From a virus: DNA of 64,000 bases. The DNA is taken from IMG/VR virus record IMGVR_UViG_3300035670_000018, positions 103,364 to 167,363 of that record; one strand, written 5' to 3'. Both the position numbers and the translations under genes were made by a program. The notes under the pieces are model-generated. The model was not told where the DNA came from. It saw only the letters and a list, made by a program, of their open reading frames with translations, and searched no databases. The first letter of the stretch is position 1. Every line of letters begins with the position of its first letter. Below are positions 11,381 through 48,773 of this stretch, piece after piece.

Positions 11381-11611
11381 ATGAGAAAGCAGAGTCTTTG
11401 GAATCGATTTCTTAACTGGTACAGTCCAGTTTGGGGTATGCTCGTTCCGCTTGTCATCGCAGTAGGCTTTCTTTTTGTTCTAGAATATAAAGCAGATGAA
11501 CAAAAGCTTGCATTTTCTAATGCCTGTGCTACAATGGGTGGTGTCGCATTGATTGGACGTAACGGAACAAAAGTTTGCTTCAAGCAGGATGTTGTCCTGT
11601 CTGTACACTAA
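11381..11611 (+). CDS. Small membrane protein
   Basis: One hydrophobic segment. Confidence 0.5.
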   Translation: MRKQSLWNRFLNWYSPVWGMLVPLVIAVGFLFVLEYKADEQKLAFSNACATMGGVALIGRNGTKVCFKQDVVLSVH

Positions 11612-11628
11612 ATAAAATACAGTTTAAT

Positions 11629-11711
11629 GGCCACGTAACCGATGGCGGCTTCTACCCGCTTAACCGTAACTGGAGTTGAAAATGGGAGTTCGAATCTCTC
11701 CGTGGTCGCCA
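11629..11711 (+). tRNA. Atypical tRNA-Arg(TCT), no D-arm, expanded variable region
   Basis: GGCCACG/CGTGGTC acceptor, GGCGG-CTTCTAC-CCGCT, canonical T-arm, CCA. Confidence 0.75.
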
Positions 11712-11733: not shown

Positions 11734-12000
11734 ATGTCTGCACCGAAGACCAAGACCAAGTACACTTCTAAGGGTGAGCGTGAAGCGAACCGTAGCTTGT
11801 CAAAGGCTATCAAGCGTGATCGCACAGTCATTGAGAAGTCTCAGATCAAGCAGAAGGCATGGTTGAAGGGACAGAACCCTTGGATCGTCGTGCCGAATGA
11901 GAATACAGCCGATACTAAGGCACGGTTTGTTCGCGTTCGTGCTGAGACTGAGTGGGGTGATCCGCGCAAGGGCTTCATGTTCGGCGCGATGAAGGACTAA
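11734..12000 (+). CDS. Basic hypothetical protein conserved in T4-like phages
   Basis: GGAG SD; YTSKGER...AWLKG.NP. Confidence 0.6.
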   Translation: MSAPKTKTKYTSKGEREANRSLSKAIKRDRTVIEKSQIKQKAWLKGQNPWIVVPNENTADTKARFVRVRAETEWGDPRKGFMFGAMKD

Positions 12001-13013: not shown

Positions 13014-13100
13014 GGACCAGTCGCCTAGTGGCTATGGCAGCAGACTCTTAATCTGTCGTGAGAAATCACATCGTGGGTTCGAGTCCCACTTGGTCCTCCA
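13014..13100 (+). tRNA. tRNA-Lys(CTT) with long variable arm
   Basis: Cloverleaf, GTGA-GAAA-TCAC arm, CCA. Confidence 0.88.
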
Positions 13101-14345: not shown

Positions 14346-14431
14346 ACTACCTTATCCAAGTGGTTGAAGGAAGGCGGCCGATAACCGTCTGGCGAAAGCC
14401 CGCGTTTGTTCGAATCAAACAGGTAGTACCA
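14346..14431 (+). tRNA. tRNA-Ile(GAT) with long variable arm and C33
   Basis: Cloverleaf, GGC-GAAA-GCC arm, CCA. Confidence 0.85.
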
Positions 14432-14960: not shown

Positions 14961-15044
14961 GGACTGGTTACCGTAGTGGCGAACGGCGCTGACTTTTAAT
15001 CAGCTATGCAAACACCGTGGGTTCGAGTCCCACCCAGTCCTCCA
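14961..15044 (+). tRNA. tRNA-Lys(TTT) with long variable loop
   Basis: Cloverleaf, CCA. Confidence 0.88.
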
Positions 15045-15447: not shown

Positions 15448-15541
15448 GCATCCGTATCCCCCTTGGCTACGAACCAAGAGTAAGGTAACTGGAGATGGTC
15501 AGAGATGACTAATGCAGGTTCGAATCCTGTCGGATGCTCCA
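15448..15541 (+). tRNA. Atypical tRNA-Arg(ACG), no D-arm, expanded variable region
   Basis: GCATCCG/CGGATGC acceptor, CTTGG-CTACGAA-CCAAG, canonical T-arm, CCA. Confidence 0.75.
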
Positions 15542-15557
15542 CTAAAGGAAAACAACA

Positions 15558-15920
15558 ATGAAACTATTAATAGCAGCCTTTGCTGCCCTATTTTTAATGA
15601 CAGCACCCAGTAATGCTACAACAATGGTAGCATCATGGTATGATTGTGTTAAGCCTGGTGAATGTAGTAAACATAAGATTACTGCAAGCGGGCAAAAATT
15701 CAATCCAAATGCTTTAACAGCAGCACACAAGACATTGCCTTTCGGCACAAGACTGAGAGTTACACACAAAGGAAGATCGGTAATAGTAGTAATTAATGAT
15801 AGGGGCCCGTTCATTAGAGGCAGACATTTAGACCTATCAAGAGCAGCAGCAAGAAAGATTGGCTGCGGTGGAGTTTGCACAGTCAAGGTTGAAATCTTAG
15901 GAAAGAAGAAGAAAAGATAG
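15558..15920 (+). CDS. RlpA-like (double-psi beta-barrel) lytic transglycosylase, secreted
   Basis: Signal peptide; ASWY...TASGQKF...TAAHKTLPFGT...INDRGPF...LDLS. Confidence 0.9.
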   Translation: MKLLIAAFAALFLMTAPSNATTMVASWYDCVKPGECSKHKITASGQKFNPNALTAAHKTLPFGTRLRVTHKGRSVIVVINDRGPFIRGRHLDLSRAAARKIGCGGVCTVKVEILGKKKKR

Positions 15921-16586: not shown

Positions 16587-16620
16587 GCGTCTTGGGAGGT
16601 GATGGTCACCTCACCGCTCT
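16587..16620 (+). pseudogene. 5' half of a tRNA gene cut off at the anticodon loop
   Basis: GCGTCTT-GG-GAGG-TGATGGTCA-CCTC-A-CCGCT-CT, then the endonuclease promoter; no 3' half found. Confidence 0.65.
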
Positions 16621-16640
16621 CTGAAATACTAAATAGTAGT

Positions 16641-17213
16641 ATGAGATACACCATTTACAAAACGACTAATACAGTCAACGGCAAATACTACATTGGTAAA
16701 CATCAAACCATTGATCCAATGGATAACTATCTGGGTTCAGGTAAGGCTATTGCTAATGCCATAAAACTACACGGTAAAGATTCTTTTGTGAAAGAAGTTC
16801 TGTTTGATTTTGATACAGAAGAGGAAATGAACAGTAAAGAGCGTGAACTTATTACTGAAGATATCGTAAACGATCCGATGTCTTACAATTTAGGTGTCGG
16901 TGGAGAAGGCGGTCCTCACTTCAGTGGAAGAAAACATACAGACGAAACGCGAAAAAAACAGAAAAACGCAAATACAGGTCGTGTCTATGATTACGATAAG
17001 TATAGCGAAGAAAGAAAAAAGACCTTCTTTACTGAAGGCAATGAATACTGGAAGAAAAGAAAAAAGAACTTTCATACGGAAGAGAGCAAACAAAAGATTC
17101 GAGAAAAAAGGTTATTACAACCAACACCGAATTTAGGGCGCAAAATGTCTGAGGAACAAAAAGAAAAGATTCGTCAGACGCTTCTAAAGCGAAACAAGAA
17201 TATGCCTGTGTAG
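16641..17213 (+). CDS. GIY-YIG homing endonuclease (SegB-like position in the tRNA array)
   Basis: TIYKTTN...YYIGKH...YLGSG; NUMOD3 repeats; TACTAAATA at 16627. Confidence 0.9.
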   Translation: MRYTIYKTTNTVNGKYYIGKHQTIDPMDNYLGSGKAIANAIKLHGKDSFVKEVLFDFDTEEEMNSKERELITEDIVNDPMSYNLGVGGEGGPHFSGRKHTDETRKKQKNANTGRVYDYDKYSEERKKTFFTEGNEYWKKRKKNFHTEESKQKIREKRLLQPTPNLGRKMSEEQKEKIRQTLLKRNKNMPV

Positions 17214-17289: not shown

Positions 17290-17495
17290 TGCTAACTCCG
17301 ACGGGAGTTGGCCGAGTGCAAGGAAATGACTGCTCACCAGGAGCGGTTAACTTGGCTAGATGGTGTGGTGCCCGTGCGCGACTGACGAGAGTCAGAGGCG
17401 TATCGTCTCCGACCAAGAGAATCTAGGCTGACACGTGGCAGATACAAGGTATCTTGGTCGTGTCTTGTGGGTGTACCCCAGTCCCACCTCACCTT
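17290..17495 (+). ncRNA. About 200-nt structured RNA, manA-motif-like
   Basis: Several hairpins; CGACCAAGA/TCTTGGTCG; GTGGG/CCCAC end; GTGCAAGG and GGTGTGGTGCCCG resemble the manA RNA from memory; adjacent to tRNAs. Confidence 0.55.
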
Positions 17496-18314: not shown

Positions 18315-18812
18315 ATGATCAGAAAGAATATGGATTTAGACGAAGTTCGTGCATTCATCCAAGCACAATCTCCCGAAACAAAGATTTATCTAGGTGGCGA
18401 CTCTGAACGCTTTCAGTTGAATGGTGTATGGATGGCTGACTACATCAACGTTGTCGTTGTTCATAAGAACGGCAAGAACGGTTGTCGTGTGTTCGGTTCT
18501 GTTGTGCGTGAGCGTGACTATGACCAGCAGAAGGACAAGCCACGTATGCGTCTCATGAATGAAGTAATGAAGACTGCACAGCTTTACCTTGATCTGGAAG
18601 AAGCTATCGGTGAACGTGACTTTGAAATTCATCTGGACATCAATCCTGACTTGAAACACGGCTCATCTTGTGTTATAAATGAAGCTGTTGGTTACATTCG
18701 TGGTATGTGTAATGTGGTACCGCTAGTGAAGCCAAATGCTTGGGCAGCATCTTACTGTGCTGACAGGTACAAGGACGCTATTCAACATATTCCACAAGTG
18801 AAGGTAGGATAA
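18315..18812 (+). CDS. RNase H-like YkuK (DUF458) family protein
   Basis: IYLGGDS...RLMNEV...EIHLDIN...KPNAWAASYCAD. Confidence 0.8.
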   Translation: MIRKNMDLDEVRAFIQAQSPETKIYLGGDSERFQLNGVWMADYINVVVVHKNGKNGCRVFGSVVRERDYDQQKDKPRMRLMNEVMKTAQLYLDLEEAIGERDFEIHLDINPDLKHGSSCVINEAVGYIRGMCNVVPLVKPNAWAASYCADRYKDAIQHIPQVKVG

Positions 18813-18816
18813 AATT

Positions 18817-19266
18817 ATGACTAAGTTTTTTGTTATGTTGGCAGTGATGGCTGCTGCAATCTTTATGCTTGCTACTGGCACTAGAGCAGGAGTTGAACCT
18901 CTTGGTGAGCATGAAGTGATTATTAGGATTGACAAGTCCGATCAGAAGATGTACGTAGAAACGCCTACTGATTATTTTGAGTGGGATGTTTCTACTGGTC
19001 GTAAGGGTTATCGTACTCCTGTTGGCGTGTTTCAGCCCTATCTTTTGAGACCGATGCATTACTCAAGCAAGTATAATAACGCGCCGATGCCTCATTCAAT
19101 TTTCTTTCATGGTGGTTATGCAATTCATGCGACAACAGAAGTAAAGAAGCTTGGTCAACCCGCATCACATGGATGTATTCGTCTTAGCCCTCAGAATGCT
19201 CGTTGGTTGTATCGCATCGTAAACGAGTACGGCAAGTATAATACATATATAGAGATTACAGAATAA
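18817..19266 (+). CDS. L,D-transpeptidase (YkuD family), secreted
   Basis: Signal peptide; VSTG..TP.G; GYAIH...ASHGCIRL. Confidence 0.92.
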   Translation: MTKFFVMLAVMAAAIFMLATGTRAGVEPLGEHEVIIRIDKSDQKMYVETPTDYFEWDVSTGRKGYRTPVGVFQPYLLRPMHYSSKYNNAPMPHSIFFHGGYAIHATTEVKKLGQPASHGCIRLSPQNARWLYRIVNEYGKYNTYIEITE

Positions 19267-48191: not shown

Positions 48192-48773
48192 ATGAACTAC
48201 GAATTTCCAAACATATCACATATAGATGACGTTCTGTGGGCAATCAAGGACTCTCCTGAGTTTATTGTTGCTGAGAAGGAAGGATATACTGTTCTAAACT
48301 ATGTCGTGGCAACTCACGATACTTTTCCTGCTGGTGATATTCATCGGCGTGAGTGTCGTGGACTAATCTTCGATTCTGAAACTGGAAAGATCACTCGTAG
48401 ACCTCTTCACAAGTTTCATAACATTGGAGAAAAAGAAGAGACTGCTGTTGAGAACTTAGACTTTTCTAAGTCACACAAGATTTTTGAAAAGTTGGATGGC
48501 AGCATGATTGCTCCGTTTGAGATAGGCATAGGTTCTGGTGTTATTCGTTTCGGCACCAAGATGGGCGTCACTGATGTTTCCATGCAGGCCGAAGTGTTTG
48601 TTGCCGAGAATCCACGCTACATGGATTTTTCTAAGTGGTGTATCTCTAATGAGATTACTCCTATCTTTGAGTGGGTAAGTAATCAGCAGCGTATTGTTCT
48701 TGACTATCCTGAGGATAATCTCATATTGATTGCTGCCCGTCATATGATAACAGGTGAGTATATTCGCCTATAG
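48192..48773 (+). CDS. RNA ligase 1 (Rnl1/RnlA), N-terminal part
   Basis: RECRGLIF; KFHN; EKLDGS (motif I); TPIFE. Confidence 0.88.
   Translation: MNYEFPNISHIDDVLWAIKDSPEFIVAEKEGYTVLNYVVATHDTFPAGDIHRRECRGLIFDSETGKITRRPLHKFHNIGEKEETAVENLDFSKSHKIFEKLDGSMIAPFEIGIGSGVIRFGTKMGVTDVSMQAEVFVAENPRYMDFSKWCISNEITPIFEWVSNQQRIVLDYPEDNLILIAARHMITGEYIRL

Follow-up and report, generated by a model that had tools for sequence, protein, structure and literature searches.

Introduction

In the textbook view, every tRNA known to function on a bacterial ribosome is a cloverleaf, and for arginine this form is exemplified by tRNA-Arg ICG and argU UCU of Escherichia coli. D-armless mitochondrial tRNA-Ser(AGY/AGN), like other truncated mitochondrial tRNAs, has lost its D-arm, carries an unpaired loop instead and is served by specialised mitochondrial factors. 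The permuted tRNA genes of Cyanidioschyzon merolae are cyclic permutations, and processing restores the normal cloverleaf. Here, these systems are compared with two elements in a 64,000-nt stretch of viral DNA (the window; positions 103,364 to 167,363 of IMG/VR record IMGVR_UViG_3300035670_000018). The first is an 83-nt element with a UCU anticodon at 11629-11711 on the plus strand, which an initial annotation had described as a D-armless tRNA-Arg; the second, at 15448-15541, has the anticodon ACG. Judged from sequence comparison, both are very probably functional phage tRNA-Arg genes of a "transposed D-arm" design, hereafter called rewired. Full-text searches of the literature found no description of this architecture.

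The rewired genes resemble canonical tRNA-Arg in the 7-bp acceptor stem, the discriminator with CCA, the 5-bp anticodon stem, the anticodon loop of CU-NNN-AA type and the TTCGA T-loop. Shared as well are U8, an A14-like A, a GG, an A20-like A and a 15-48-type pair, together with the anticodons ACG, UCU, UCG, CCG, CCU and GCG. They differ in that no D hairpin lies between positions 9 and 26. Instead, the predicted 5' strand of the D-stem and the D-loop follow the anticodon arm on its 3' side, so that the arm is nested in the helix and the D-loop is a bulge. Canonical tRNA-Arg genes are annotated beside rewired ones in Caulobacter phage Ccr10, Xanthomonas phage X1 and Stenotrophomonas phage DLP_6.

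The absence of a D hairpin at the usual place and the short stretch between acceptor and anticodon stems are shared with the mitochondrial D-armless tRNAs; in contrast to those, the rewired class retains reordered equivalents of D-stem and D-loop, a T-loop and the GG, and would belong to bacterial translation. Two subtypes were distinguished. Subtype T1, to which the UCU gene belongs, has an 8-nt linker between acceptor stem and anticodon arm and a 23-nt post-anticodon segment, and subtype T2 has a 7-nt linker and comes in two forms, short and long, of which the long one (T2-long) has an extra arm and includes the ACG gene. The ACG gene and 22 other T2-long members resemble class II tRNAs (bacterial Leu, Ser and Tyr) in an extra hairpin of 5-6 bp before the T-arm, but here the arm sits on a rewired core with Arg identity, and short T2 and T1 members are without it. 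As in C. merolae, the order of gene segments departs from that of a standard tRNA. The rewired order A-C-B-D, however, is not cyclic, and the 5' and 3' ends are standard; therefore, the mature RNA must keep the rewired topology.

Pairing of the Linker with the Post-anticodon Segment

The UCU element runs from the acceptor stem through the 8-nt linker, the UCU anticodon arm, the 23-nt segment and the T-arm to an encoded CCA (Table 1). In neither gene is position 9 followed by a D hairpin; the stretch before the anticodon stem measures only 7-8 nt. Viral homologues were obtained by four pattern scans of a viral collection combined with a structural parser, and the figures given for them cover the matches listed. 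Seventy-five distinct T1 sequences were aligned with MAFFT, giving the ungapped alignment A1, and covariation was first seen in a table of linker against post-anticodon positions. Linker position 3 and post-anticodon position 16 (A1 columns 10 and 48) formed a canonical pair in 75 of 75 sequences (G-C 40, A-U 30, U-A 3, C-G 1, G.U 1). Positions 4 and 15 (columns 11 and 47) did so in 73 of 75 (C-G 50, U-A 13, A-U 8, U.G 2). For positions 5 and 6 (columns 12 and 38), all 75 sequences had an invariant C-G, and positions 6 and 5 (columns 13 and 37) were again canonical throughout (75/75; G-C 63, A-U 7, C-G 3, U-A 1, G.U 1). The corresponding pairs of the UCU gene are 11638-11676, 11639-11675, 11640-11666 and 11641-11665, followed by an A/C mismatch at 11642/11664.

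Among the same 75 homologues, all seven pairs of the acceptor stem covaried (98.9% paired), as did five of five pairs of the anticodon stem. For the whole structure, 96.7% of the cells were paired; shuffled alignments reached 63% and slid controls about 40%. When the helix was evaluated in 80 T1 sequences, none of 2000 shuffles was as good. RNAalifold predicted the same long-range pairs unprompted; its extra pairs 8-50 and 9-49 were left out, as they consist of letters that do not vary and have no counterpart in the T2 layout.

The covariation indicates that the D-arm is present in a rebuilt form, in which two strands that lie apart in the chain enclose the anticodon arm by pairing. Because the linker pairs with the post-anticodon segment around a conserved bulge, the 5' strand of the D-stem and the D-loop would be placed 3' of the anticodon arm. 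The 8-nt linker of the initial annotation was found at the place of the D-arm, but it does not replace that arm, being one strand of a covarying helix, and the designation "D-armless" was not upheld.

Folding of single sequences yielded z-scores of 0.15 and -1.64, and the minimum-free-energy fold of 11629-11711 offers a different picture, a local hairpin in the variable region that is 3.7 kcal/mol better than the proposed fold. This would suit a truly D-armless tRNA of the mitochondrial type, in which the linker is unpaired and the displaced motif lies in a local variable-arm hairpin. Across A1, however, that hairpin was 70% paired and its variable pairs were broken in 33-47 of the 75 sequences, and it was rejected, whereas the linker and post-anticodon positions were 97-100% canonical with compensatory changes. 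We regard a D-armless tRNA as highly unlikely.

Several points weigh against the rebuilt D-arm. The homologues were gathered by sequence patterns, and the tested pair positions were free in only one of the scans; moreover, pairs were counted per sequence and not per independent evolutionary event. Linker position 7 and post-anticodon position 4 (columns 14 and 36) were canonical in 43 of 75 sequences, with five canonical types, and the other 32 had mostly A/C or A/A. In T2, the outermost pair was likewise weak (62% canonical), yet four Watson-Crick types occurred. The proposed folds had energies of -18.4 (T1) and -20.8 kcal/mol (T2), compared with -22.1 and -28.2 kcal/mol for the minimum-free-energy folds, under a nearest-neighbour model that takes no account of tertiary contacts and puts a penalty on the bulge. 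Finally, the assignment of the bulge as a D-loop, and with it the L-shape discussed below, is based on conserved letters plus a single covarying tertiary pair.

Table 1. Coordinates of the two rewired tRNA-Arg genes and of features near them in the window
Feature	Position	Strand	Remarks
UCU gene, acceptor stem, 5' strand	11629-11635	+	pairs with 11701-11707; 7 bp, one G.U
UCU gene, linker TAACCGAT (8 nt)	11636-11643	+	invariant U8 and A9, then predicted D-stem strand (22-26 analogue) entering the anticodon stem
UCU gene, anticodon arm	11644-11660	+	5 bp, 7-nt loop CTTCTAC; anticodon UCU at 11651-11653
UCU gene, post-anticodon segment	11661-11666	+	mostly conserved UA, then strand pairing with the linker (predicted 10-13 analogue)
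UCU gene, putative D-loop analogue, 8-nt bulge UAACUGGA	11667-11674	+	proposed equivalents of A14, R15, G18, G19 and A20
UCU gene, two helix-closing bases above the bulge	11675-11676	+	partners of linker positions 4 and 3
UCU gene, UGAAAAU connector to the T-arm	11677-11683	+	conserved; putative variable-region analogue; last base a candidate 48-like Levitt-type partner
UCU gene, T-arm, loop TTCGAAT	11684-11700	+	99.2% paired in homologues
UCU gene, acceptor 3' strand, discriminator G73 and encoded CCA	11701-11711	+	read directly from the sequence
CTAAATA box	11608-11614	+	15 nt upstream of the UCU gene; possible variant of a T4-type late promoter
ACG gene, second rewired tRNA-Arg, subtype T2-long	15448-15541	+	anticodon ACG at 15469-15471; U73 and CCA
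ACG gene, linker (7 nt)	15455-15461	+	
ACG gene, putative D-loop analogue	15486-15493	+	
ACG gene, extra GNRA-capped arm	15496-15511	+	
ACG gene, T-arm	15514-15530	+	
DPBB-fold (lytic transglycosylase-like) protein	15558-15920		within the tRNA array
GIY-YIG/NUMOD3 (Seg-like) homing endonuclease	16599-17213		phrog_314, E = 4e-44; within the array; not next to the ACG gene but about 1 kb away
PF04308 RNase H-like and YkuD L,D-transpeptidase-domain proteins	18315-18812, 18817-19266		within the tRNA array

The Displaced Motif as a Putative D-loop

The initial annotation had noticed a 10-nt motif common to both Arg elements, and this was confirmed: a pattern search of the whole genome (167,363 bp) found only two copies, at 11666-11675 and 15485-15494, both inside the two elements. 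About 0.3 copies would be expected by chance on both strands of 167,363 bp. The 8-nt bulge has the consensus UAAYUGGA, from which the 80 T1 sequences hardly deviate. U8 and A9 do not vary, and the A14-like A and the GG are invariant or nearly so. In tRNA numbering, A14, R15, G18, G19 and A20 are the D-loop landmarks of bacterial tRNA-Arg. Within the D-loop, bacterial arginyl-tRNA synthetase (ArgRS) recognises chiefly A20 as an identity element, the other determinants being C35 and U36 or G36. The base after the GG, which occupies an A20-like place, was A in 175 of 175 members with Arg anticodons and U in 9 of 11 members with Ile anticodons. The Arg identity letters, namely C35 with U36 or G36 (in the UCU and ACG anticodons) and an A equivalent to A20, are all present. 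The purine that follows the UA covaried with the last base before the T-stem without exception (A/U 168, G/C 13, G/G 5), which suggests a Levitt pair of the 15-48 type; in both window genes this pair is A with U.

From these letters we infer that the displaced motif is a D-loop analogue bulging from the rewired helix. Segment 10-21 would then be transposed to the 3' side of segment 22-43. The predicted chain order is [1-9][22-26 analogue][anticodon arm][10-13 analogue][D-loop analogue][connector][T-arm], compared with the standard [1-9][10-21][22-43][44-76]. The D-stem-like helix, formed by the linker with the post-anticodon bases and the two bases after GGA, could stack on the anticodon stem. 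In the bulge, the GG would touch the T-loop, the purine would make the 15-48 pair and the A would serve as the A20 identity element. In this manner, the rewired molecule could reach the usual L-shape.

Companion ACG Gene

The ACG gene has 35 nt between the anticodon arm and the T-arm. A covariance model (R1) was built from T1 sequences alone. It scored 90.9 bits on the UCU gene, by construction, as that gene is a seed member, and 32.7 bits on the best canonical tRNA of the window. The structural alignment of the UCU element with 15448-15541 that the initial annotation had proposed was carried out with R1; the ACG gene was aligned over its full length with 46.9 bits (E about 8e-12) and follows the same plan. 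No further family member beyond the UCU and ACG genes was found by R1 in the window. The inner pairs of T2 are well kept, columns 11-38 and 12-37 being 100% paired and columns 14-33 having C-G 47 and G-C 8. The register that R1 imposes on T2, linker position 4 with post-anticodon position 16, was rejected: linker 4 is an invariant C, and post-anticodon 16 is G in only about 15%.

In the 23 T2-long members, the hairpin of 5-6 bp lies between the D-loop analogue and the T-arm and has 20 distinct stem sequences; its loops are mostly GNRA tetraloops, GAGA in the ACG gene of the window. The ACG gene, which starts 6 nt downstream of tRNA-Cys, is presumably transcribed together with the tRNA array.

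Distribution of the Family

Among the matches listed, at least 186 distinct elements on viral contigs share the layout. Arg anticodons account for 175 of the 186 (94%; ACG 94, UCU 58, UCG 14, CCU 6, GCG 2, CCG 1) and Ile anticodons for 11 (6%; UAU 7, GAU 4); anticodons for amino acids other than Arg and Ile did not occur in these 186 elements. CCA is encoded in 139 of the 186. The Ile members have an A73 discriminator and often lie in arrays without encoded CCA. Ile tRNAs with a UAU anticodon are rare in bacteria. The Ile anticodons are carried by L008 (4010-4186), L049 (minus strand), L058 (4498-4890), L316, L324, L329, L339 and L355.

In cultured phages, short blastn matches to the RNA itself led to the tRNA clusters of Vibrio phage D260, Caulobacter phage Ccr10, Xanthomonas phage X1 and Stenotrophomonas phage DLP_6, all four of which have the same body plan at homologous places that are unannotated in GenBank. 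A megablast search of the 5-kb region against cultured phages gave no match. Rewired elements always lay inside tRNA arrays. Patterns of high specificity, applied to 596 Gb of cellular genomes, matched only 4 and 13 places, and the real instances lie in dense arrays with 6-25 tRNAs within 8 kb. The Flavobacterium matches among these places, which had neither a tRNA fold nor tRNA neighbours, were dropped as chance. A loose pattern scan of bacterial genomes returned 120 loci, one of them real. Contigs filed as cellular that carry a rewired tRNA-Arg are L286 (a scaffold of Bradyrhizobium sp. BR13661), L188 (a metagenome-assembled genome (MAG) of Blastocatellia) and L289 (a Cellvibrionaceae MAG); they may stem from prophages, from phage contigs that were misbinned or from tRNA arrays of bacteria. 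In L188, ARAGORN calls a 92-nt "tRNA-Ile(tat)" directly after the rewired gene.

Gene finders do not see the two window genes. ARAGORN called 27 tRNAs for the window (28 for the genome), but no tRNA-Arg and nothing at either rewired place, and the Rfam tRNA model RF00005 (gathering threshold 29 bits) gave no match at 11629-11711 or 15448-15541 even at E<=10. These failures, and the lack of GenBank annotation at the homologous places, are what one would expect of decaying tRNA-Arg pseudogenes left by deletion of the D-arm. Decay, however, would not produce at least 186 distinct sequences of the same layout in unrelated phages with compensatory changes in all helices, nor would it preserve invariant tertiary-core letters and CCA in the sole Arg tRNAs of a genome, and we consider this origin extremely improbable. 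Homologues with ordinary D-arms would have pointed to recent deletion; the closest relatives keep the same layout. The compensatory changes in every stem indicate that the rewired design is a structural class under selection rather than decay, as the initial annotation had suggested, but the 11 Ile members show that the class is not strictly Arg-specific.

To our knowledge, the new points are the presence of both subtypes as the sole Arg tRNAs of a full set, the Ile minority, the statistics of the A20-like base and the Levitt-type pair, and the complementarity of isoacceptors described below.

Predicted Role in Decoding

The 167,363-bp viral record was judged complete by CheckV and belongs to a T4-like marine myovirus, whose gp43 polymerase is about 52% identical to those of Synechococcus phages. 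Its 28 canonical tRNAs cover 19 amino acids, and Arg alone is missing. The claim that the two elements are the only Arg tRNAs thus holds for the window and for the genome. In 152 long open reading frames (ORFs), the 2,143 Arg codons comprise 41% AGA, 5% AGG, 30% CGT, 16% CGC and 6% CGA. The UCU gene would read AGA and AGG, and the ACG gene, after A34-to-I editing by host TadA, would read CGU, CGC and CGA. Together, the UCU tRNA and the ACG tRNA read as ICG could cover about 97% of the Arg codons. A phage-encoded ArgRS, which the initial annotation had proposed to look for, was not found: the core domain was absent from the phage genome, and the same search was positive in 14 of 14 control genomes. 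Therefore, a host enzyme would be needed for charging, and host ArgRS would charge both RNAs.

Over 159 viral loci, a canonical tRNA-Arg with the same anticodon shared the locus with a rewired Arg gene only 13 of 175 times. Rewired ACG accompanied canonical UCU, CCU, UCG or CCG, but never canonical ACG, in the 47 arrays whose canonical tRNAs number at least 15. Such isoacceptor complementarity is as expected of a decoding tRNA, not of a decoy.

This bears on the idea that the elements are conserved tRNA mimics that do not decode, acting as decoys for a host nuclease of tRNA-Arg or as regulators that bind ArgRS. In its favour, anticodon nucleases attack tRNA-Arg (PMC2610378; colicin D in PMC12409363), and the genome contains a T4 Rnl1-type ligase. 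A decoy, however, would not need the complementarity just described, nor six different Arg anticodons, and its phage would have tRNAs for 19 amino acids and none for Arg. In addition, the constraint on the acceptor stem, the discriminator, the encoded CCA and the T-arm resembles that on a tRNA. Mimicry is therefore improbable, though less so than the two alternatives weighed above.

If the decoding function is real, the family would be a natural and widespread non-cloverleaf tRNA in bacterial translation, and the L-shape would matter rather than the cloverleaf connectivity. Phage tRNA complements would be systematically under-counted, as this phage seems Arg-less to ARAGORN and Rfam. The rewired design would also be a ready-made scaffold for the engineering of orthogonal tRNAs, and a testable question arises as to which enzymes (ArgRS, TadA, RNase P, anticodon nucleases) can handle the new topology and which reject it. 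The genome would make a clean test case because it relies only on the rewired form for arginine, with both subtypes side by side.

Possible Selective Advantage

Overexpressed PrrC strongly cleaves tRNA-Arg(UCU) (PMC2610378), colicin D targets the tRNA-Arg that reads CGN, and AriB of PARIS makes base-specific contacts with the D-loop (both in PMC12409363). On these grounds, escape from such nucleases is a reasonable hypothesis for the selection of the rewired form. The re-threaded D-arm would hide phage tRNA-Arg, and some tRNA-Ile, from nucleases that read the geometry of D-arm and anticodon stem, be they the host's or those of the phage's own host-shutoff system, while ArgRS, EF-Tu and the ribosome would still accept the tRNAs. 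We offer this counter-defence role tentatively and hold it to be possible rather than probable. The null alternative is that the rewired genes spread by hitch-hiking with homing endonucleases and confer no special advantage; the position of the Seg-like gene in this array is given in Table 1.

Genomic Surroundings

Two small ORFs (11381-11611 and 11734-12000), both of which match PHROGs of unknown function, flank the UCU gene and leave a gap of 122 nt for it. The initial annotation had assigned it a CTAAATA late promoter of its own. The box is present, and the closest relatives have a related box at the equivalent position and the same distance (TATAAATA in L045, L117 and L336; ATAAATA in L091 and L025), but the 11 copies of CTAAATA in the window, against 8.9 expected, do not amount to an enrichment. 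A late-type promoter upstream of the UCU gene is plausible on this evidence. Scans for sigma-70 promoters and terminators around the UCU gene gave nothing above shuffles.

None of the proteins encoded next to the tRNAs in the array (GIY-YIG, DPBB, RNase H-like and YkuD; Table 1) has an obvious tRNA-specific role. The T4 Rnl1-type RNA ligase match lies at about 48351-48773 of the window (record 151714-152136; PF09511, 74.9 bits) and contains one TAG. T4 mends tRNA cut by anticodon nuclease with a ligase of the Rnl1-type family. The match could reflect tRNA repair and would then hint at pressure from anticodon nucleases.

Three other tRNA genes of the window, tRNA-Lys(CUU) at 13014-13100, tRNA-Lys(UUU) at 14961-15044 and tRNA-Ile(GAU) at 14346-14431, have normal D-arms and, at 84-87 nt, long variable arms that form hairpins. 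Such arms are unusual for the class I tRNA-Lys and tRNA-Ile, and tRNA-Ile(GAU) also has no Rfam tRNA match. Between tRNA-Met and tRNA-Gly, at 17294-17495, lies a full-length manA RNA motif (RF01745), which scored 61.6 bits and thus above its gathering score.
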